Positions 9,321-39,001 are shown, numbered from the stretch's first letter. The stretch: DNA of 64,000 bases from an uncultured Candidatus Binatia bacterium (GCA_965214605.1 OZ243961.1:576001-640000); one strand, 5' to 3'. Notes: generated by a model not told the origin, from the letters alone. Program-made: numbers and translations.

Positions 9321-10526
9321 ATGTCAGGAAAGAAAAACAAGGCGGGACGCCGCAAGAGTGCACAAGCGGCGATCAGCCCAGCAGCCCTGCCCTTAGCAAC
9401 CGGTCCGCTGATGCTGACACGTATCCTAGCCCTTCTGGGCCTGGGGGTCAGTGCCTATCTGTCTGTGGTGCATTATCAGGCCGAGGCCGAGGATTTAGTG
9501 ACCTCCCATTTTTGCCAGGCTGGGTCGGTCATCGACTGTACCTCGGTGCTCAACAGCTCATATGCCACCTTATTTGATCTCCCGGTGGCCCTCTGGGCTA
9601 TTGGAGCCTACATTATCACGCTCGTCCTGACTTTTACCCCCCAGGCGCTCGCCCTGCTTTTTGTGTGTTCATGGCTGTTTGTGTTTGGCCTGTACATGGC
9701 CGCTGTCTCGTTCTTCGCCCTCCAGTCGGTGTGTCTGTTCTGCACGGCACTGTATCTGATCAATATCGGGCTGTTTGTCAGCGCCATCATCTTGGTGCGC
9801 TCCTCTGCCGACTTCGAGCTGAGTCGGTTTGCCTTTGGCCTGCTCGGCTGCGTCATTGTAACCGCTGGGATTGGCTTGTGGCAAAACCAACAAGCTCACC
9901 TCACGCCGCTCGATTTTAGGGCGCCGAGCGCCGAACGCATGGATAGGAGTTTTGTGCAGTTTTACAACGAACAACGCGAGGTGGCGGTCCAAAACCAAGA
10001 GCGCTATGTCAAGGGCGCTCAGGACGCGTCGCTGCGCATTACCGAGTTTGTCGATTTCCGGTGCCCCAGCTGCGCCGTGGCCCATGACTACCTGACCTAT
10101 CTGCGTGCGGCCAACAAGGGCGAGGTCCGCGTGGTCTTTCACCACTACCCGCTCGACCAGGCCTGTAACCCTATTGCTCAACAAGTCCATCCCTCGTCTT
10201 GCGCTGCAGCCATTGCCTCGGAGTGCGCCGGCGACCAAGACGCGTTTTGGGCCTATGCCGATCGCCTGTTCGCCAACCAAAAACGCTTCAGTCGCGCGGA
10301 GCTAGTCGATCACGCCGAGGCGCTGGATCTGGACCGTGAGCGGTTCGAGTCCTGCCTCGGAGACACTCGTATGGCAGATCGGGTGCGCCGAGATGTTGAA
10401 GAGGGACAGCGGCTTGGAATCAGCGCCACGCCGACCCTCATCATCAACGGGCGCGTGATCGAGGGACTGCCGCCGCCGAAAAAGCTGGCGACCCTGGTAA
10501 CGCTGCAGCAGCAGCAGAATCGGTAA
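9321..10526 (+). CDS. vitamin K epoxide reductase (VKOR)-DsbA fusion
   Basis: VKOR cysteines (CQAGSVIDC, CLFC) with TM helices, then DFRCPSC and ISATPTLIING. Confidence 0.88.
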   Translation: MSGKKNKAGRRKSAQAAISPAALPLATGPLMLTRILALLGLGVSAYLSVVHYQAEAEDLVTSHFCQAGSVIDCTSVLNSSYATLFDLPVALWAIGAYIITLVLTFTPQALALLFVCSWLFVFGLYMAAVSFFALQSVCLFCTALYLINIGLFVSAIILVRSSADFELSRFAFGLLGCVIVTAGIGLWQNQQAHLTPLDFRAPSAERMDRSFVQFYNEQREVAVQNQERYVKGAQDASLRITEFVDFRCPSCAVAHDYLTYLRAANKGEVRVVFHHYPLDQACNPIAQQVHPSSCAAAIASECAGDQDAFWAYADRLFANQKRFSRAELVDHAEALDLDRERFESCLGDTRMADRVRRDVEEGQRLGISATPTLIINGRVIEGLPPPKKLATLVTLQQQQNR

Positions 10527-29445: not shown

Positions 29446-30612
29446 TTACGGCTGCCCCAACACCGCGACACACGACACCGCACCCGGCCCGCCAACGTTG
29501 TGGACCAAACCCAGCCTGGAATTTTGGATCTGACGCGGGCCGGCTTGGCCACGCAGCTGAGTCACAATCTCATACACCATACGGACTCCGCTAGCCCCGA
29601 TGGGATGCCCAAAAGACTTGAGGCCACCGCTTGGATTAACCGGGATATCGCCGTCCAGAGCGGTCCGCCCTTCTTCAATCAGGGTAGCCCCCCGGCCTTT
29701 GGGGACAAAACCCAAGTCTTCATAATTGGTGATTTCGGTCCAGCTAAAACAGTCGTGGACCTCGGCCACGTCGATCTCCATGAGCGGGTCGGTAATGCCG
29801 GCCATGGCGTAGGCCTGGGCCGAGGCGTGCTCAGTAGCCTGAAAGCCGAGGTAGTCATAGCTCGGGTCCATAAAGGGCCGACCGCTGCTCACCGCTAGGC
29901 CCACCCCTTTTACCAAAATATAGTCATCGCGGTATTCTTTGGCCAGATCCGACCGACACACCACAACCGCGGCCGCCCCATCGGTCGTCGGACAGCAGTC
30001 ATACAGGCCGAACGGATAGGCCACGATGGGCGCGGTCAGGACTTCTTCGGCAGAGACGGTCTTTTGCAGATGAGCCTTGGGATTCAACGAGCCGTTGTAG
30101 TGATTTTTGACCGACACCTTGGCCAGGCTCTCACGGGTCAGTCCATAGGTGTGCATATAGCGGGTAGCAGCCAGGGCAAACAGACCCGGCGCGGTTGACC
30201 CGTCATTATAGTAGGGATGCACGCCCTCACGCGCCAAGCCACGCCCCGGACGGTCTTTGTACTTCTCCACCCCGAGCACCAAGGCCATATCGTACAGCCC
30301 GGCCGCCACGGCTATGACCGCGTGACGGAAGGCATCGGTTCCGGTCGCGCAAAAATTCTCGACCCGGGAGATTGGTTTATTGTACAGACGCAGCGCATCG
30401 CCCAAGGAGACCGCGGCCTTACCGTGTCCCTGGGCGGGTGAATAGGTGCCAAGCCAGGCCGCGTCAATCTCGTCAGGGGCAATCTTAGCGTCGTGAAAAG
30501 CGGCAAACGCCGCCTCAACCGCCATTTCTTCGTAACCCTGATCAACATTGTCCCCAAACTTAATGCAGCCTGCCCCAATGACAGCAACCTGATCTTTGAT
30601 GGAAGCGGACAT
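29446..30612 (-). CDS. thiolase (SCP2/lipid-transfer type acetyl-CoA acyltransferase)
   Basis: VENFCATG, KNHYNGSLNPKAH, DCCPTTDGAAA, EVHDCF, NPSGGLKSFGHPIGASG. Confidence 0.92.
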   Translation of the reverse strand: MSASIKDQVAVIGAGCIKFGDNVDQGYEEMAVEAAFAAFHDAKIAPDEIDAAWLGTYSPAQGHGKAAVSLGDALRLYNKPISRVENFCATGTDAFRHAVIAVAAGLYDMALVLGVEKYKDRPGRGLAREGVHPYYNDGSTAPGLFALAATRYMHTYGLTRESLAKVSVKNHYNGSLNPKAHLQKTVSAEEVLTAPIVAYPFGLYDCCPTTDGAAAVVVCRSDLAKEYRDDYILVKGVGLAVSSGRPFMDPSYDYLGFQATEHASAQAYAMAGITDPLMEIDVAEVHDCFSWTEITNYEDLGFVPKGRGATLIEEGRTALDGDIPVNPSGGLKSFGHPIGASGVRMVYEIVTQLRGQAGPRQIQNSRLGLVHNVGGPGAVSCVAVLGQP

Positions 30613-30649
30613 GACTTCTCCCTTCTGCAACAGCTGTCGTGTTCCCCCC

Positions 30650-30857
30650 TACTAGCAGCTTGGACAAGAGCCATGACCAACGTCGCAATCCCTGCCCCTT
30701 GCAGCCGCAAAGCCCGCTACCACTGCGCCTTTGTGGCCGGGTGGTCATCGTCTGTCTGAGACGCTTCTCCGATAGCTCTGGCTCTGGCTTCGGCCTGACA
30801 CTAGTCCATCCCGGTCTTTTACAACTCTTTGGCTCTAGTCCGTGTGTCAAAAGCCAT
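30650..30857 (-). pseudogene. DUF1640/CCDC90-like coiled-coil gene remnant
   Basis: Manual translation MAFDTRTRAKEL*KTGMD*CQAEARARAIGE...PATKAQW*...IATLVMALV; three in-frame stops, with an RBS upstream. Confidence 0.6.
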
Positions 30858-31248
30858 GACTTGGCTCTCCCCTTTCCTGCCCAATATACCCCCTATTAAG
30901 GAAGAAAACAGCGGGGAAAACTTTGCTATCTCACCTTAAACACCTATAGGGAGGTATTGTCTGATTGCCAGGCATGTCAAGCCGCGGCCTGCTTGCCTCG
31001 CCCCCAGCCTCTCCCGCGCCGGGAGGGGGGAAAGCCTCCGCCTACAGCAGGTGAAATTGGCACAGTACTCTGGCCACCTCCGGATCGCTACGCTGTTCTA
31101 ACGCCCAGAACACCTCTCTCAGCTCCTCCAACCGCAGGCGGTTGCCGCTGAGGTCATCTTCCAGGCTCCCCACCTGCCTGCGCAAAGGTCCAACTCATCG
31201 TTCGTCGGTTCCGCAGCACAAAGCCTCTGCTAAGCCGCCACGAGTGTG

Positions 31249-31480
31249 CTACAGGCACTCTAGTAGCCTCAGGGTCAACTGAAATTGGCGGGCAAACCGT
31301 GCGGCCATGTCCTCCCGCAGTTGGTGAGAACGCCTAGCCGTATCGGTCCAGAGTTGCTCATTCTGTTGGGCCCGCAGCTGGCCCATCTCCGCCGGCAACC
31401 GACCGATGTCTCCACGCAATTGCTGGGACCGCGTCCGCCAACCCCGCTTGTCGGGCTTCGAGTCGTATCAGACGCCTCGG
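31249..31480 (-). pseudogene. decayed coiled-coil (DUF1640/XhlA-like) gene remnant
   Basis: RLIRLEARQAGLADAV, frameshift, then QQLRGDIGRLPAEMGQLRA...QLREDMAARFARQF. Confidence 0.35.
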
Positions 31481-31864
31481 TCAAGGTCGGGGATAGCTCT
31501 CCGGGGCGGGCAAGAACACTATGACCAAAACCCCCGGGAGGAAGGATTAACTCATGGCGGCATTCAAGGTCGGATGCCGGAAATGTCAAGTCATGTGGAA
31601 AAGGGGATCAGCCTGACTCGACTGACGGGGCCGTTATGGCATCCACAGCTTCTCCTCAGCAGGGGTAAGCCAAGGCGGCATAATATCGAAAGGGGCGAGC
31701 CAGCAACCGCAGCGGCTCGGTCCCCCCTCCCCTCCTCTCTCCAAGGGGAGGAAAGTGCAGACGGAGACACGACTCGCCAGCGGCTCAATTCCTGGTCTTG
31801 CTTGTTTCAAATCCCATGTCTAGGCTGTGTTGGGAAAGCTCTTCAGCAGACGAATAGGAGAGAT

Positions 31865-34800
31865 ATGAGACGACAACATCACAGTGGTCAGAACGCTCGT
31901 GACTGGCGGCGCCAAATAGCAGCCTCTGCGGAGAAACAACAAGAAAGCGTCTTCACATATAAGTTTGGACTGAGCATACAAGAGGGAGATTTAGACTTTG
32001 CCGCGGCCACTCGAACCTACGACATCACCGAAGGGATTTTATGCGGGAGCTTAATCGGCTTGATATGCGCTGTGCATCTGTCCGGGTTTCGCCTATTTTC
32101 CAAGAGCGGGGAGACACGCCAGTTCCGAAATCGAAGTCGATATCCCGAAGACGCATTCACCAAGGCGTTCCGCGCTCATACGGAAATCATAAACCCTGAC
32201 ATTACGATTCAGTCAATTGAGGCTGTCTTCGCCGCACCTCCGCGAAAGAAAATAGCCTGGTCAGCGGACACCCTTGGGAAGCGGCTGTTTCAAACCTGGA
32301 ACAATCGCTCCCCAAAAGACGCAGAGAGAGAGCACCCAGAATTTTTACTGGCCCAGGGAATCGCTTGCGAAGTCGCCAAACAGTTCTCCGGATGGAAGGA
32401 ACTCGCCGACAATGTAAGCGGTGCACTGGCCTGCGCTGACAGATATCTGGCGACCCTGGGAGACTCCTTTCCAAAACTCAGTAACCTGCCACCCGGAACC
32501 ACGATCAATCCAGACTCTTGTACGCTTGCCTACGATCCCGAATCGCCCTTCGTTGAGATGGTTGGTAACGAAGAAAACTGGCTCCATCAGGTAGTGGCGG
32601 TTTGTGCTGGCAGGCTGAAACGAGACATGCCCGATCGTGACCTATCCTCGTCTGATTTTGCAAAGCGTCTGAACGACGCTGTTGTTACTAGTCAGCACAA
32701 TGGACTGTCTTGGTTATTCGGCAACGGCCTACGCTACCTTCGGAAATCAAGCATTGAGCGGATTACCGAAAACCTTGATGTTCCACACGGGAAGCGCCAA
32801 CGAGTTGAACAACTCAAAGCCTTTGCCGACGCGCTTCCTGACAATCCATTTTTCGACACCAATGGCTATGCCGAGTTTCGTACCTCCGTCGGTGGCAAGA
32901 TCGCCTCATGGGTCTCGAACTACTGGAAGCGCATTTGCGAACTTGCGACGTTGCATTCTCAGCCGCCGGATATCGCTATTCCCGAAACGCTGCAAGATCC
33001 CGATAACGCCTTTCTGTTTTCTGGTCAGCACACCAACGCTGCCGGCCTCATAGACCTCTCTAATCGCATCCCTGAGCGGGTCAAAAAAGCCGGCAATGCG
33101 CTTGTTGTTCTGCGTGGAAGTTGTATTCCTGGACCGGAAGATATCGCCGTCGTTGAATCCGTTGCCGATGAGATGACCGAACTCACTGGGCAACTCTCCA
33201 TGCTCGACAACCGCATTCGGCAGGAAACCGAACGCGCCAAAGACGCCGAAAACGAAAAACGTGCCAAGGTCCTAGAATCCCTCAGGCCAAACATTCCCAA
33301 AGGTCTCAAGGATCTGCCCAAACTAAACAGCATATCAGGCGGCACCGTGGACGCTACCGGTGAGATCAAACGGCTGGAAGCCGACCTGAACTCCGTCATA
33401 CGAGCACGCCGTGAGCACTTCCGGCAACTCTCTGAATGGGCGGACAGTAACGCAGGCGGCCTTGATCCCCTGCCCATCCTTAAAGAACGCGAACAAGAGG
33501 CGCTTTCCGACCGAAACATGGACCTCGATTGTGCAGCTGAATACGCTATCCGGCGTCTGCTTGATCGCATCGGCGTCATGTCGCATCGACTGTCGCCAAG
33601 TGTAGCCGAGCAAATCCGGACCGCCATGACGCCGCTTTTTCGCAGGAAAAAAGAGGCAAACCGCTACTTCTACAATCGCAACGGCAGGATCTATCGGCAT
33701 CCCTTCAGCACCTCACGTCACCAGGCTTATGCCATAGACGTAGAGCGTGCCCACGCAACCGATTGGCTCTTGTGGTTGGAGGAGCGGACGACAGAAATCC
33801 GTAACGCTCTGCGCGCGGATCAGACACGCCTACGCGATCTTCTGTTGATGGAAGCTTTTGTCCTGACGACACGGCTCGGCGGTCTCTCTGATCGTGTACC
33901 GGGGGATCTGGCGAAACCGGAAAACGACTGTCTCAACATTCCTCCCCTGCTCAAAGCGCAGCTCGAGGCTAGGGAGGTTTCGCGCGATGTGGCCGTGCGC
34001 GCCTTCAATCTGTTCAATAGTGCTATCAATGGTCTGTCGTTTCGCGCCTTCCGTGATAGTTTCATTGTTCGCGTTAAGTTTCAGCGCCAAGATCGCGAAG
34101 AAGTATTTTATGTCCCGAAGGAACGCCCCTGGCAGGCACCAGCTGACTATGATTCAGCCAAGGGTGAGATATCTAAGGGCTTGAAGCTCTCCGCAGTCGT
34201 GCGTGACCAAACCGGGGCTGTTCTGCCGCGTGAGACAGCCAAGGGCTTGAGTAAGGCGAAGTTTCCCGAGCCGGGTACGCGTGCCCTGCTGCGTCAATCG
34301 CCTCATGACTGGTTCGTCGAACTCGATGTCCGCTCTACCCAGGCTTCGGAGTTGGCAGGGCTGCCCGTCAAGAAGAACAAAGACGGACTCAAGCGCTGGA
34401 AAGTCCTGAAAAAGCCGGCCTTTCGACTAGTCGGGCCGCCCTCGTTCAAGACGCAGCTCGACCGCGCTCTGACAAGCGGAGAGGTGAAGCTCGGCGACTA
34501 CACGCTCATCATTGACCAGCTCTTCAAACAGTCCTTGTACGTCGAAGGTGAGGAGATACACCTTTTGGCTGAACCGGTAAAGATTCGGGCAGAACTGGCG
34601 GTTCCAGTAATAGACAACCGGCCGTATCCCAAGTCTGAAACCGACTTGATATTTAACAAGATCGTTGCCATAGACCTTGGCGAGCGACGGGTCGGCTACG
34701 CGGTCTTCTCGCTCATAGACTTCGTGGAAAACGGTTGCCAAAATCCGATCAAGGTGGGGAGCGTCGCCATTCCCGCTTTCAGGAAACTGATGGCCGCGGT

Positions 34801-35650
34801 CCGCCGCCACCGCGGGTCGCGGCAGCCCAACCAGAAGGTCGACCAAACCTACTCGAGAGCGCTGATGCAGTTCCGAGAAAACGTGGTGGGAGACGTCTGC
34901 TCTCGCATTGAGACCTTGTGCGAATACTTCGGCGGATTTCCCGTACTCGAAAGTTCGGTGGGAAATTTCGAGACAGGGGGCCGCCAGCTGGAGATGATCT
35001 ATGGTTCAGTCCTGCGCCGCTACACTTTCTCCGAAGTGAAAGCCCATAAAGCCACCCGTAGCCATCATTGGTTCACAGCGGACACCTGGAAGCATCCCTA
35101 CGTCTACACCTACACCTACACCTGGAATAAGAGAGAAAAGCAATATTCCGGCCCATCCAAGCCGCTGAAGATATTCCCCGGCGTCACGATCAACCCGGCC
35201 GGCACCAGCCAGACTTGCCAGCATTGTAAGCGGAATGCCCTTCAGGCGCTGCGTAACATGACGGACAAGGTCGAAGTGGGAGAAGACGGCCGCGTAGTCC
35301 TCGGAAACGGGACGATACGGCTTCTCGAACGAGCCGATTATCTTCCTTCCGAACGAAGAAAATTTCGTCACAACAAAGCAAGGCCGCCGCTAAACGTGCC
35401 TGCCCAGAAAGGATCCCGGCTAAGCCGCGACATCACGCGTATCGCCAGACGAAACATGCGGCAACCCCCATCTTCCACAATGTCACCCGATACCACACAG
35501 TCTCGCTTCAAATGCGTGTACGTTGACTGCGGCTATGAGGGGCATGCCGACGAAAATGCCGCAATTAACATCGGCCGGCGTTTTTTGGAACGGATCGATA
35601 TGGAAACGTCGAGAGGGACGTGCCGGGACTTGACCGGGCAGCGAGAATGA
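31865..35650 (+). CDS. cas12c: type V-C CRISPR effector Cas12c (C2c3), about 1261 aa
   Basis: RuvC-I IVAIDLGE, RuvC-II FPVLESSVGNFETG, RuvC-III GHADENAAINIG; Zn-ribbon CQHC...CVYVDC; N-terminal SGQNARDW and HLSGFRLF, plus GGKIASWVSNYW, as I recall from Cas12c2. Start set at ATG 31865 after AGGAG. Adjacent to cas1 and a short-spacer array. Confidence 0.9.
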   Translation: MRRQHHSGQNARDWRRQIAASAEKQQESVFTYKFGLSIQEGDLDFAAATRTYDITEGILCGSLIGLICAVHLSGFRLFSKSGETRQFRNRSRYPEDAFTKAFRAHTEIINPDITIQSIEAVFAAPPRKKIAWSADTLGKRLFQTWNNRSPKDAEREHPEFLLAQGIACEVAKQFSGWKELADNVSGALACADRYLATLGDSFPKLSNLPPGTTINPDSCTLAYDPESPFVEMVGNEENWLHQVVAVCAGRLKRDMPDRDLSSSDFAKRLNDAVVTSQHNGLSWLFGNGLRYLRKSSIERITENLDVPHGKRQRVEQLKAFADALPDNPFFDTNGYAEFRTSVGGKIASWVSNYWKRICELATLHSQPPDIAIPETLQDPDNAFLFSGQHTNAAGLIDLSNRIPERVKKAGNALVVLRGSCIPGPEDIAVVESVADEMTELTGQLSMLDNRIRQETERAKDAENEKRAKVLESLRPNIPKGLKDLPKLNSISGGTVDATGEIKRLEADLNSVIRARREHFRQLSEWADSNAGGLDPLPILKEREQEALSDRNMDLDCAAEYAIRRLLDRIGVMSHRLSPSVAEQIRTAMTPLFRRKKEANRYFYNRNGRIYRHPFSTSRHQAYAIDVERAHATDWLLWLEERTTEIRNALRADQTRLRDLLLMEAFVLTTRLGGLSDRVPGDLAKPENDCLNIPPLLKAQLEAREVSRDVAVRAFNLFNSAINGLSFRAFRDSFIVRVKFQRQDREEVFYVPKERPWQAPADYDSAKGEISKGLKLSAVVRDQTGAVLPRETAKGLSKAKFPEPGTRALLRQSPHDWFVELDVRSTQASELAGLPVKKNKDGLKRWKVLKKPAFRLVGPPSFKTQLDRALTSGEVKLGDYTLIIDQLFKQSLYVEGEEIHLLAEPVKIRAELAVPVIDNRPYPKSETDLIFNKIVAIDLGERRVGYAVFSLIDFVENGCQNPIKVGSVAIPAFRKLMAAVRRHRGSRQPNQKVDQTYSRALMQFRENVVGDVCSRIETLCEYFGGFPVLESSVGNFETGGRQLEMIYGSVLRRYTFSEVKAHKATRSHHWFTADTWKHPYVYTYTYTWNKREKQYSGPSKPLKIFPGVTINPAGTSQTCQHCKRNALQALRNMTDKVEVGEDGRVVLGNGTIRLLERADYLPSERRKFRHNKARPPLNVPAQKGSRLSRDITRIARRNMRQPPSSTMSPDTTQSRFKCVYVDCGYEGHADENAAINIGRRFLERIDMETSRGTCRDLTGQRE

Positions 35651-35669
35651 GCCACCATCGTTCCTATTC

Positions 35670-35745
35670 TCTTCCAGGCCCAAGGACTTATCATCCATAC
35701 CTCAACCTGGAAGACGTCCCCGCCTCCCCGGACGCCCTTCAAAGA
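35670..35745 (+). ncRNA. candidate Cas12c scoutRNA/tracrRNA
   Basis: TCTTCCAGG/CCTGGAAGA 9-bp stem enclosing a GGA..TCC hairpin and ATACCTCAA (CCTC pairs with the repeat 3' GAGG); CGTCC/GGACG hairpin; CCCTTCA pairs with repeat TGAAGGG. Confidence 0.7.
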
Positions 35746-35757
35746 GGGGAGGCATCA

Positions 35758-36813
35758 TCACCTTACCAGCTTTGAAGAGGAATGGGAGGTAAGGGGAATA
35801 TCGCCTGGCAGCCGATAGGAGACCTTTGGCGGACGCCCGCCTTTACGTTCACCCGCGGCGGGAACGATAAACCGGCGCATGTCGCCGGCCAGGTAAGCCC
35901 GCAGCGCCAACACGCTTCCATGCAACAGATTTTTACGGCGCACAAACTGGTGGGTAGCGGGAACGTAGACAACCTTCTCCATATCGTTCTTCAGCCCGGA
36001 CAAAGTGGCTTTGGTCAGCGAGTCAGAGGCATTGTCCGGGGGATGGGTCCGGCAGGCCCCGGCAACGGCCTCTTCAATCATGTACCGGGCTGGCTCCATG
36101 AGATCGTAGACAAGTCCCATGTAGTCGGTCCCTTCATGCAGGAATCCGTGACTGGGCGAAAGCCGGTGGATTAACAACCAGCGCAAGAGTACCCCAGACA
36201 GGAACATGGACCCTGCATCAAGGGCGGCTGGTAAAGGCCCCTCCCCTCTGCGAGTGATATCAGGGTATCCCATCCGAGTGAAATATCTCCGCCAATATCT
36301 GCGTGATTGCTCGGCTTCCCAGGCCCGTATCTGTCCAAGATTCCGTGTACGCGCCAGCCGTTTGTAGACAGCGCTTGGCATGGGCAGTGTGTTCTCTACC
36401 GCCCGAAAACGTTCACGTACTAGAGTCCGCGCAATATAGGCACGTTTAGATTTATTTGTCCGGGTAACGATCTGTCTGGTCAAAATATCGTCGGCATCGA
36501 CTCTGGGAGCTGGCAAGAAAATCGCTGGGCGGCTGATGTTGCGGCGGTGAACAAGGAGGGGCACTCGGCGAAAGGCAAGTTCGTCAATGAGAGCGACCGG
36601 AATCTGGCCAGTCGCGCCGTAGAACATGATGCAATCAAGCTGCGACAGCTCAGTATCGACCTCGCCTCCGTTATATGTGAACCGCCATAAGTTCTTTTTG
36701 AGCCTTGCTACCTGAGAGACGTATGGTAGCCACAAGGTCGTCTTGCTTCTCCGCTTGGTTGATTTCCATGTCCAAAGAGAATTTGGATGTTGAAATTGAT
36801 CAATTTTAACCAT
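35758..36813 (-). CDS. cas1: type V-C Cas1 (Cas2-independent mini-integrase type)
   Basis: LWTWK..LWLPY N-terminus, AWEAEQSRRYWRRYF, LSPSHGFLH, LVYDLMEP; no cas2 or cas4 nearby. Confidence 0.9.
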   Translation of the reverse strand: MVKIDQFQHPNSLWTWKSTKRRSKTTLWLPYVSQVARLKKNLWRFTYNGGEVDTELSQLDCIMFYGATGQIPVALIDELAFRRVPLLVHRRNISRPAIFLPAPRVDADDILTRQIVTRTNKSKRAYIARTLVRERFRAVENTLPMPSAVYKRLARTRNLGQIRAWEAEQSRRYWRRYFTRMGYPDITRRGEGPLPAALDAGSMFLSGVLLRWLLIHRLSPSHGFLHEGTDYMGLVYDLMEPARYMIEEAVAGACRTHPPDNASDSLTKATLSGLKNDMEKVVYVPATHQFVRRKNLLHGSVLALRAYLAGDMRRFIVPAAGERKGGRPPKVSYRLPGDIPLTSHSSSKLVR

Positions 36814-36874
36814 ATATGTCCTCAGTAAGAAAATCGAAAAATCATTGTAATATAAATATTTATCTGGTATACCT
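36814..36874 (+). promoter_or_regulatory. AT-rich CRISPR leader / divergent cas1 promoter region
   Basis: 61-bp AT-rich spacer with TTGTAA-17nt-TATACC and palindromes ATAAATATTTAT and GGTATACC. Confidence 0.65.
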
Positions 36875-37539
36875 CCAGTTCTGAAGGGGAATTAGAGGCC
36901 GAAAAATATGAGTTCTGAAGGGGAATTAGAGGGTGTGGAGCATGACGCAATCCAGTTCTGAAGGGGAATTAGAGGCTGAAATACGGGCGTTCCTCCAGTT
37001 CTGAAGGGGAATTAGAGGTTCTCAACAGCATGAGGAGTCCAGTTCTGAAGGGGAATTAGAGGTTCTCAACAGCATGAGGAGTCCAGTTCTGAAGGGGAAT
37101 TAGAGGTTCTCAACAGCATGAGGAGTCCAGTTCTGAAGGGGAATTAGAGGTTCTCAACAGCATGAGGAGTCCAGTTCTGAAGGGGAATTAGAGGTTCTCA
37201 ACAGCATGAGGAGTCCAGTTCTGAAGGGGAATTAGAGGTTCTCAACAGCATGAGGAGTCCAGTTCTGAAGGGGAATTAGAGGTTCTCAACAGCATGAGGA
37301 GTCCAGTTCTGAAGGGGAATTAGAGGTTCTCAACAGCATGAGGAGTCCAGTTCTGAAGGGGAATTAGAGGTTCTCAACAGCATGAGGAGTCCAGCAGGGG
37401 AATTAGAGGTTCTCAACAGCATGAGGAGTCCAGTTCTGAAGGGGAATTAGAGGCACGCGCATGACGCACCCCCCAGTTCTGAAGGGGAATTAGAGGATGG
37501 AAGGCTTCGGGCTGCCCAGTTCTGAAGGGGAATTAGAGG
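36874..37539 (+). CRISPR. CRISPR array, 16 repeats (T)CCAGTTCTGAAGGGGAATTAGAGG, 15 spacers (6 distinct)
   Basis: Period 43-44 nt; spacers 18-19 nt with a 25-nt repeat. Spacers 4-13 are identical. Spacer 1 is 12 nt before a 5'-truncated repeat 2. Repeat 13 (37391-37409) has a net 5-nt deletion. The 3' GAGG end and left leader indicate + orientation. Confidence 0.97.
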
Positions 37540-37560
37540 CAGGGAGGGAGGGCTGGAATC

Positions 37561-38286
37561 TCATCGCTGTCCAAGTCGAATCGCCTCGGCCAGGTCTACC
37601 GCGCCGGTGTAGAGGGCGCGGCCGATAATCAGGCCGTGTATACCGTCCGCTTTACATGGCCGCAGCCGCTCAATGTCTTCAAGACTGGCCACGCCACCAG
37701 AGGCAATAACAGGAATCTGAATTGCCCGAGCCAAGAGCCGGGTGGCTTCGATATTCACCCCTAGGGATGTACCGTCACGGATAATATCGGTGTAGACAAT
37801 CTCACCAACGCCCATATCTTGGCACTGTTCGGCAAGTTGCGTCGCCTCAAGCTCAGTCGCTTCAGTCCAGCCTTGGACAGCGACTTTCCCGTCCCGGGCA
37901 TCAATGCCAACCGTAATCCGGCCCAAAAAGCGTCTACATGCCTCAGCTACAATCTGAGGCTGCCGATAGGCTACTGTGCCCAGAATTGCACGCTGTACCC
38001 CGAGTGAGAACATCTGCTCAATCGCCGCTAGGCTGCGCAGTCCACCGCCGAGCTGAACCGGAATATGTAAGGATTGGCAGATTTTTTCTATAGCGTCAGT
38101 GTTCACGCCTGCGCCTGACATGGCGCCGTCAAGATCAACTAGGTGGAGCCGAGCGGCTCCGGCGTCTTGCCAGCGCTGTGCCACGGCGACCGGATCGTCG
38201 GAGTAGATGGTCGCCTGAGCCATATCACCTTGGTAGAGACGCACACACTGACCGGCCTTGAGGTCGATGGCGGGGATAATCTCCAT
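37561..38286 (-). CDS. hisA: ProFAR isomerase
   Basis: IIPAIDLKAGQCVRLYQG, HLVDLDGA, QLGGGLRS, YTDIIRDG, IASGGV. Confidence 0.95.
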   Translation of the reverse strand: MEIIPAIDLKAGQCVRLYQGDMAQATIYSDDPVAVAQRWQDAGAARLHLVDLDGAMSGAGVNTDAIEKICQSLHIPVQLGGGLRSLAAIEQMFSLGVQRAILGTVAYRQPQIVAEACRRFLGRITVGIDARDGKVAVQGWTEATELEATQLAEQCQDMGVGEIVYTDIIRDGTSLGVNIEATRLLARAIQIPVIASGGVASLEDIERLRPCKADGIHGLIIGRALYTGAVDLAEAIRLGQR

Positions 38287-38291
38287 AGGAA

Positions 38292-38951
38292 TCACAGAGG
38301 AGGGTGGTGGTCGGTCACAAATTTGCCGAAGTTGGCCAAGATTTGTAGGCCGACGGCCTGGCTTTTTTCTGGGTGAAATTGGGTAGCGAAGATATTGCCT
38401 GACCAAACACTCGACGCAAAATGGATGCCGTACTCGGTGGTGGTGGCCACGATGGCCGGGTCTGTTGGGATCGGATAATAGGAGTGAACAAAATACACCG
38501 CCGCGCCCTCGGGTATCTTGGCCAAATGGGGGGCTGGTCGCTCAATGTGGAGCTGGTTCCAGCCCATATGGGGGATTTTTTGTGGACCGTTGTCGGTTGT
38601 CAGCAGAGCAGGATCAAAGCGCTCGACCGTGCCTTTAAGGATGTCCAAACCTTGCTCCCGGCCAAACTCGTAACTTTCTGAAAACAGGATCTGCATACCG
38701 ACACAAATCCCAAGCAGCGGCGTGCCGCTGTTGGCCACCCGATGGACGGTTTCGATAAGCCTACATTTAGCCAGCCCGTCCATACACGCGCTAAACGCGC
38801 CCACGCCCGGCAGTACTACTCCCGCGGCAGCCTCAATGCGGGCAGCGTCCCTGGTGATTTCAGCCGGGTAGCCCATCTTCTCGCAGGCTTTTTGGACACT
38901 CCGCAGATTGCCCATACCATAGTCAATAATCGCAATTGTGCCGAGAGGCAT
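38292..38951 (-). CDS. hisH: imidazole glycerol phosphate synthase glutamine amidotransferase subunit
   Basis: IIDYGMGNLRSV, LPGVGAF, GICVGMQ, PHMGWN, YFVHSY, QFHPEKS. Start set at MPLG. Confidence 0.95.
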   Translation of the reverse strand: MPLGTIAIIDYGMGNLRSVQKACEKMGYPAEITRDAARIEAAAGVVLPGVGAFSACMDGLAKCRLIETVHRVANSGTPLLGICVGMQILFSESYEFGREQGLDILKGTVERFDPALLTTDNGPQKIPHMGWNQLHIERPAPHLAKIPEGAAVYFVHSYYPIPTDPAIVATTTEYGIHFASSVWSGNIFATQFHPEKSQAVGLQILANFGKFVTDHHPPL

Positions 38952-38977
38952 TCTCTCTCCTCCGCTCCCTCCCTCTC

Positions 38978-39001
38978 CCTCTAATTCCCCTTCGGAGCTG
39001 G
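38978..39001 (-). repeat. isolated inverted copy of the CRISPR repeat (22/24)
   Basis: Minus strand reads CCAGCTCCGAAGGGGAATTAGAGG, 26 nt upstream of the hisH ATG. Confidence 0.9.

Follow-up and report, generated by a model that had tools for sequence, protein, structure and literature searches.

CRISPR-Cas systems of subtype V-C, in which the effector Cas12c is accompanied by Cas1 alone, are rare but known, and the few Cas12c orthologues assayed so far conflict on whether the enzyme cuts DNA or merely binds it. According to the parts of the cited reports that were accessible, three of the four characterised orthologues, namely Cas12c2, Cas12c_4 (near-identical to Cas12c2) and OspCas12c, show no DNA cutting in vitro (PMC9522604; bioRxiv 10.1101/2021.12.06.471469; PMC9723637), whereas Cas12c1 cuts double-stranded DNA, requires a TG protospacer-adjacent motif (PAM) and uses N299 as the G-reading residue (PMC9723637). 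The V-C Cas1 is described, in the available text of PMC6977970, as a ‘mini-integrase’ encoded by a lone cas1 next to 24–25-bp repeats and ~19-bp spacers, a description that also suits the locus reported here. This locus lies in a 64,000-nt stretch of DNA (the window; GCA_965214605.1, OZ243961.1:576001-640000, positions on this contig being given below as C1) from an uncultured Candidatus Binatia bacterium. It comprises cas12c (31865–35650, + strand), a predicted trans-activating CRISPR RNA (tracrRNA, or scoutRNA; ~35664–35753, +, ends approximate), a convergent cas1 (35758–36813, −), an AT-rich leader (36814–36874, +) and an array of 16 repeats and 15 spacers (36875–37539, +). We consider it highly likely that the locus is intact and probably a working type V-C system, that an uncultured Binatia bacterium acquired it horizontally and that it operates by the mechanism proposed below. 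Judged by its sequence, the Binatia Cas12c is a new, uncharacterised member of an already described subtype, and the locus is otherwise ordinary for that subtype.

The effector open reading frame (ORF) spans 31406–35650 on the + strand. We placed the start codon at the ATG at 31865, giving a protein of 1261 aa: a Shine-Dalgarno-like AGGAGAG sits 4 nt upstream, the NCBIfam profile and 50 homologous proteins start at the same position, and the 153 codons upstream of it yielded no family match over cut-off. The protein scores 1075.3 bits against the NCBIfam Cas12c profile NF033950 (cut-off 250), covering profile positions 1–1244 of 1246, and matches five Cas12c models of PADLOC at 862–1322.5 bits. 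We also considered type V-D (Cas12d/CasY), which is likewise Cas1-only, has short repeats and a scoutRNA, and resembles the protein weakly in its RuvC part. Since the Cas12d model NF033951 reached only 99.8 bits against the same cut-off of 250, the locus is not type V-D. The first-pass annotation, which had proposed a ~1261-aa RuvC protein with Cas12c-type motifs, was thus borne out.

Strong PDB matches of the protein are limited to Cas12c2 (7v93; E 1.3e-152, 513 bits, residues 5–1244) and Cas12c1 (7vyx; E 1.7e-122, 414 bits), and both are remote. Residues were mapped through HMMER alignments to Cas12c2, the best solved-structure match (7v93/7v94), with the numbering given in the accessible part of PMC9522604, and were checked in the translation. 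The RuvC triad D937, E1029 and D1229 aligns with D928, E1014 and D1201 of Cas12c2, and the CCCC zinc finger of the TNB (target nucleic acid-binding) domain, C1118, C1121, C1217 and C1222, aligns with C1089, C1092, C1189 and C1194. All 51 aligned sequences retain the RuvC D/E/D residues and these four cysteines without change. The PAM-reading arginines of Cas12c2, R137 and R351, are likewise conserved, as R127 and R339. With the nearest protein cluster at 72% identity and the solved enzymes at 513 and 414 bits, the protein is none of the characterised Cas12c enzymes, in agreement with the earlier suggestion of a new ortholog.

The stop codons of cas12c and cas1 are separated by a gap of 107 nt, which houses the predicted tracrRNA of ~90 nt. 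In all six close relatives this gap retains 79–94% nucleotide identity, and its DNA is more conserved than the proteins of the flanking genes, while the 1.2 kb upstream of cas12c is unconserved. The predicted RNA, encoded on the + strand, carries a 5′ anti-repeat, AUUC (35666–35669), that pairs with GAAU at positions −10 to −7 of the repeat. Next comes a 9-bp stem 1 (35670–35678 with 35706–35714), inside which lie a short hairpin region and CCAUACCUC, which is invariant. Within CCAUACCUC lies the dock CCUC (35700–35703), which pairs with GAGG of the repeat at −4 to −1. A covarying 5-bp stem 3 (35715–35719 with 35730–35734) is followed by a second anti-repeat, CCCUUCA (35735–35741), complementary to UGAAGGG of the repeat at −17 to −11, and a further covarying terminal stem of 7–8 bp is formed by 35722–35729 with 35746–35753.

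In an alignment of seven loci, 98.9% of the cells of stems 1 and 3 pair, with compensatory changes in 4 of 14 pairs. Their covariation score was reached by none of 500 shuffles, and partners slid along the alignment pair in at most 55% of cells. The terminal stem is perfect in all seven loci, in four sequence versions, and is incompatible with nesting alongside stem 3; it may take part in a pseudoknot, belong to a different fold adopted by the free RNA, or act as a weak terminator. The anti-repeats also covary with the repeat of their own locus: ACUC pairs with GAGU in two of the relatives (L004 and L005), and CCCUACA with UGUAGGG in two others (L003 and L006). Since a single evolutionary event probably underlies each pair of loci, we count these as two independent compensations. 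The pairing between repeat and tracrRNA identifies the + strand as the transcribed strand of the array. From its conservation, its internal covariation and its covariation with the repeat, we predict that 35664–35753 (+) encodes a tracrRNA. Rfam gave no match in the window at gathering thresholds, nor in 30600–37000 at E values up to 1.

The plan of this RNA is that of the Cas12c2 tracrRNA as depicted in the accessible part of PMC9522604: a 5′ anti-repeat, stem 1 around stem 2 and a 4-nt dock, stem 3, and a 7-nt anti-repeat. The register of the duplex with the repeat (−18/−17 to −11, −10 to −7 and −4 to −1) is identical to that given for Cas12c1 in the portion of PMC9723637 available (7vyx), and in both systems two repeat nucleotides, −6 and −5, stay unpaired; the three duplexes thereby match in layout those solved for Cas12c1 as well as for Cas12c2. 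Unlike the case with Cas12c2, to which the effector is only remotely similar (513 bits over ~1240 residues), the repeat and tracrRNA sequences are specific to the clade of the Binatia locus, and the tracrRNA carries the additional covarying terminal stem, which encloses the 3′ anti-repeat. The placement of the tracrRNA goes beyond the first-pass annotation, as does the ten-copy spacer described below, and it completes the set of parts that the annotation had supposed to be present.

The convergent cas1 encodes 351 aa and is the sole adaptation gene in the locus. The protein matches Pfam Cas_Cas1 PF01867 at 51.9 bits (cut-off 22.3) and the PADLOC Cas1 model at 81.4 bits, and it contains WEAEQS (165), GFLHEG (223) and YDLMEP (236), which we take to be the Cas1 active-site motifs. 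It is 69–80% identical to the cas1 products encoded next to cas12c in five close loci and 47–51% identical to those of five distant V-C loci. Whole-genome searches found no cas2 or cas4 match within C1:576001-640000, the closest cas2 being at C1:530090. Both the convergent cas1 and the absence of cas2 and cas4 from the window are therefore as the first-pass annotation had them. The order cas12c–tracrRNA–cas1–leader–array recurs in five of six related loci, which represent at least three phyla-level lineages. In the sixth, L003, from a Binatia relative, only the first 84 codons of cas1 are left (9956–10207) and the array begins shortly after.

In all seven loci the start of cas1 is followed, after ~60 nt, by the first repeat, and in six of the seven a TTGTAA or TTGAAA box lies ~32 nt before that repeat. 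Scans with promoter and terminator consensus sequences found sites no more frequently than in shuffles. The leader probably carries divergent promoters for cas1 and the array. The + strand polarity of the array is supported by this conserved leader layout and by the degenerate far-end repeats in the arrays of three related loci (L004, L005 and L006).

The 24-nt repeat CCAGTTCTGAAGGGGAATTAGAGG occurs in 15 copies with at most three mismatches on the + strand between 36875 and 37539, and none of 100 shuffles of the window contained a match. Spacers are 19–20 nt long and the period is 43–44 nt, the 10-nt first spacer being the exception. The array of short repeats and short spacers noted at first pass is thus present, and this format recurs in six close and five distant V-C loci. 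One 20-nt spacer, TTCTCAACAGCATGAGGAGT, occupies units 4–13 (37019–37429) in ten tandem copies. Exact duplicates were absent from 11 other V-C arrays comprising 131 units. Spacer duplication in general is known but uncommon, affecting ~3% of spacers, and the available text of PMC11472070 attributes it to replication slippage. The tenfold run would have arisen by slippage or by unequal recombination between repeats.

Tandem repeats with a 44-nt period assemble poorly, and no single listed contig spans the array, so that the run might be suspected to be an assembly artefact of a repetitive region. To judge this we relied on contig depths from public sequencing runs. A circular 74-nt contig of the amplified repeat unit has a depth of 685 in run X1, against 80–86 for the flanks, and 66 against 7–8 in run X2, although X1–X4 may be the source samples of the genome and are in that case not fully independent of the assembly. 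A depth 8–9 times that of the flanks, which fits the eight perfect spacer–repeat–spacer junctions of the window plus partial ones, indicates that the ten-copy run is real. The same junction is present at about flank depth in runs X5 and X6, which come from two other studies, implying at least two copies there. An artefact is accordingly very improbable: the duplicated state, with at least two copies, is found in strains from three studies, and ten copies in one population.

The public runs also reveal variation elsewhere in the array. Contigs of X1 and X5 carry nine extra bases after 36910, with which the first spacer is 19 nt long and repeat 2 is normal; the short unit of the window (36899–36932) is consequently due to a deletion confined to this assembly or strain, and is either a strain variant or an assembly error. 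In X2 one extra spacer precedes spacer 14. In X6 a single contig, of depth 2.2, leads from the leader and repeat 1 through a different 18-nt spacer to the amplified spacer. Differing leader-proximal spacers above a shared older spacer are what polarised acquisition predicts, and the array varies across natural populations as an active array would. We also observed that the 10-mer GCATGACGCA is present exactly in both spacer 2 (36933–36951) and spacer 14 (37454–37472), with unrelated flanks, and that the amplified spacer holds a resembling sequence, GCATGAGG. In the genome GCATGACGCA is not over-represented (10 occurrences versus a mean of 10.5 for shuffled 10-mers).

Searches for targets yielded no convincing protospacer. 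In a viral collection, exact searches gave no match for the amplified spacer, spacer 2 or spacer 14. Spacer 3 had one exact 19-nt match, in a 42-kb viral contig, with GA as the 5′ flank and not a T at −2. This contig matched no other spacer, and its copy of the shared 10-mer has unrelated flanks; as one such match among four short queries is about what chance would give, on a rough estimate, we did not count it. Spacer 15 (37497–37515), the true spacer nearest the trailer, agrees at 18 of 19 positions with the coding strand of the host's own squalene-hopene cyclase gene (C1:3815639-3815657). Its 5′ flank is TT, placing a T at −2, and its sole mismatch falls at guide position 8, leaving a 7-nt seed intact; a seed of 6–7 nt is given for Cas12c in the accessible portion of PMC9723637. 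None of 100 shuffles of spacer 15 produced a genome match at up to one mismatch. When up to two mismatches were allowed, the spacer had 14 matches, spread over 12 of 40 related genomes, against 4 for a reversed control, which marks it as a fairly common coding word and makes the significance of the self-match borderline. No guide-like match with a good seed, as self-regulation would entail, was found in the region upstream of cas12c, in the tracrRNA region or in the leader.

Taken together with what is reported for characterised Cas12c systems (PMC9522604, PMC9723637, bioRxiv 10.1101/2021.12.06.471469 and PMC6977970, each as far as accessible), these results suggest the following mechanism. 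Cas1 alone, like its homologues, would insert ~19-bp spacers at the leader-proximal repeat, and the array would be transcribed from the leader on the + strand, as its polarity suggests. The ~90-nt tracrRNA would bind each repeat through the covariation-supported pairings AUUC:GAAU, CCUC:GAGG and CCCUUCA:UGAAGGG, and the RuvC site of Cas12c would trim the precursor CRISPR RNA 17–18 nt past the repeat. The complex would then find DNA in which T stands two bases upstream of the target. By analogy with Cas12c2, this T at −2 would be the PAM and would be read by the conserved R127 and R339; the only two candidate protospacers have the 5′ flanks TT (self-match) and GA (viral contig). Finally, the complex would block its target chiefly through tight binding and silencing of transcription, as with Cas12c2 and Cas12c_4. 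Our own data back this scheme at three points, family membership, residue conservation and RNA pairing. For processing, the PAM, binding versus cutting, and integration by Cas1 alone, the scheme draws on the characterised orthologues.

The last step is the one for which a rival deserves most weight. The effector could be a true DNA-cutting nuclease like Cas12c1, so that interference proceeds by cleavage and not by silencing. Its RuvC triad and zinc finger are intact, and Cas12c1 cleaves double-stranded DNA with the same active site, as reported in the available part of PMC9723637. The C-terminal RuvC/TNB part is moreover slightly nearer to Cas12c1 than to Cas12c2 (198 versus 187 bits), which speaks against a binding-only effector. 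The full-length protein, however, is nearer to Cas12c2 (513 versus 414 bits), and three of the four characterised orthologues do not cut DNA in vitro. In addition, the host tolerates the 18/19 self-match in squalene-hopene cyclase, with its T at −2 and its intact seed, which would be risky for a cutter. On the analogy with these orthologues we lean slightly towards binding and silencing and regard Cas12c1-like cutting as the less probable, though quite plausible, alternative.

The far end of the array has been rearranged. The last repeat is followed by a spacer-like trailer (37540–37560, +) that reaches into the stop codon of hisA, and an orphan repeat with two mismatches (38978–39001, −) lies, leaderless, 26 nt upstream of the start codon of hisH. 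Both the trailer and the sequence after the orphan repeat hold AGGGAGGGAG. If 37561–39001 were flipped back, the array would end in a 19–21-nt spacer and a degenerate terminal repeat, with hisH-hisA following co-directionally. This arrangement suggests that the array probably once ended in the orphan repeat and that the trailer probably marks the left edge of an inversion. Synteny was uninformative on this point, since two Binatia genomes keep hisH-hisA and share no other neighbours.

Several observations weigh against an intact, working system, and most of them would be explained if the locus were a decaying relic without adaptation or interference, its repetitive array and rearranged trailer being signs of erosion. 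The rearranged trailer amounts to array damage, and the inverted orphan repeat is joined by two leader-repeat relics elsewhere in the genome. The array is monotonous, with only six distinct spacers among 15 and one sequence making up ten of them. Repeat 13 (37391–37409), an additional copy to the 15 counted above, is internally deleted, and in the assembly the 9-nt deletion at units 1–2 alters spacer 1 and the 5′ end of repeat 2 and fuses the two. Most of cas1 is gone in the related L003, and the searches of the viral collection brought up no convincing protospacer. To these points should be added the incomplete independence of runs X1–X4, the TIGR00287 score of cas1 (55.5 bits, under the NCBIfam cut-off of 71.7 and as expected of a divergent V-C Cas1) and the public sequencing runs listed for the locus, none of which is of RNA. 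Erosion nevertheless fits poorly with two uninterrupted frames of 1261 and 351 codons in which every residue tested is kept, with an intact tracrRNA that is still complementary to the repeat, and with natural variation both at the leader end and in the set of spacers, while contigs of X1 and X5 are free of the 9-nt deletion. We therefore consider a relic unlikely and retain the reading of an intact and probably working V-C locus.

Close orthologues are found in metagenome-assembled genomes (MAGs) of Binatia, Nitrospirales, Bryobacterales and Desulfurellaceae. Their Cas12c proteins are 54–74% identical to that of the window, and the loci agree in gene order and repeat family as well as in tracrRNA and in the length of their spacers. 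A search of a collection of 5.8 billion proteins retrieved 63 proteins, the closest cluster being 72% identical and the exact protein not among the matches, and scans of genomes and metagenomes recovered further Cas12c loci at 62–74% identity. In a collection of viral contigs, 98 pattern matches were obtained, none of which was confirmed as a Cas12c relative. In a FastTree phylogeny of 51 sequences the window protein falls, as sister to P0004, into a fully supported clade of 37 rows of MAG-derived proteins. Four outlying clades match the solved Cas12c1 and Cas12c2 at 382–566 bits and are thus no closer to them than the window protein; the tree thus shows the position among MAG sequences only.

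These relatives bear on the suggestion, made at first pass, that the locus might sit in a lineage not known for V-C. The suggestion is only partly right. Among the papers available to us, none connects Cas12c or type V with Binatia or Binatota. In public genomes, Binatia, Nitrospirales and Bryobacterales MAGs already carry close orthologues, and the Desulfurellaceae MAG protein, 66% identical, bears the NCBI name ‘type V CRISPR-associated protein Cas12c’. In G115, the genome of L006, which is a Binatia relative from the host's GTDB family, we observed a Cas12c match in two pieces (C1:3134370-3137937 of that genome; profile positions 1–521 and 596–1244), which could reflect a frameshift or a divergent insert.

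The distribution of Cas12c is patchy, with proteins above cut-off in two of 401 genomes sampled from the host phylum and in two of 301 sampled from the order of a Bryobacterales MAG (G003). A Nitrospirales MAG has a Cas12c that is 68% identical but a HisA that is only 41% identical, whereas the host HisA is 69% and 62% identical to those of two Binatia MAGs. The patchy spread and the incongruence between Cas12c and HisA identities indicate horizontal transfer. GC content is also lower in the locus (0.52–0.56) than in its surroundings (0.58–0.61), and as far as sequence comparison goes the three lines point to a horizontal origin.

The locus is flanked by a thiolase gene and by hisA-hisH, amid ordinary metabolic genes, and it contains the single cas12c of the host genome (4.37 Mb, nine contigs). 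Unlike the bare mini-integrase setting, this genome also has three Cas1–Cas2 modules elsewhere (C1:530090-531294, 1690006-1691264 and 3928638-3930486), one of which includes Cas4, as well as several fragments; the V-C locus thus shares its genome with further CRISPR systems. Upstream of cas12c, a 1.2-kb stretch (30631–31864) lacks any recognisable gene, gave no Rfam match and is not conserved in relatives, and the five ORFs tested there gave no Pfam match above cut-off. A quick scan restricted to ORFs of at least 120 aa suggests that this gap is shorter in relatives. Of the two relics elsewhere in the genome, the first (C1:176170-176512) consists of 213 nt from the 5′ end of cas1, which have lost the start codon, followed by the leader and by two repeats with one spacer; its identity to 36601–36932 of the window is 89.5%, and the ATG of an alpha/beta-hydrolase gene lies 10 nt beyond its last repeat. 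The second (C1:4252045-4252087, −) retains the last ~20 nt of the leader and a degenerate repeat that overlaps, with its 3′ end, the start codon of a small ORF. In both relics and in the orphan repeat, the last repeat lies at most 26 nt from, or overlaps, the start codon of a co-directional gene.

The Binatia Cas12c belongs to a clade from environmental MAGs without any assayed member. The locus supplies a complete list of parts, namely the protein, a tracrRNA with defined repeat pairing, Cas1, the leader and the array, so that it could be rebuilt directly to ask whether cutting or binding is ancestral. If this Cas12c works by stoichiometric binding and not by catalytic cutting, the degree of protection should rise with the quantity of one CRISPR RNA, and selection would then favour unequal recombination by which an effective spacer is multiplied. 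It is conceivable, and we offer it as a long shot, that the tenfold spacer run is adaptive and that the oldest spacer, spacer 15, is a natural guide for CRISPR interference (CRISPRi) on a host gene. The ten-copy spacer in any event provides a natural case for asking whether guide dosage matters in binding-based CRISPR.

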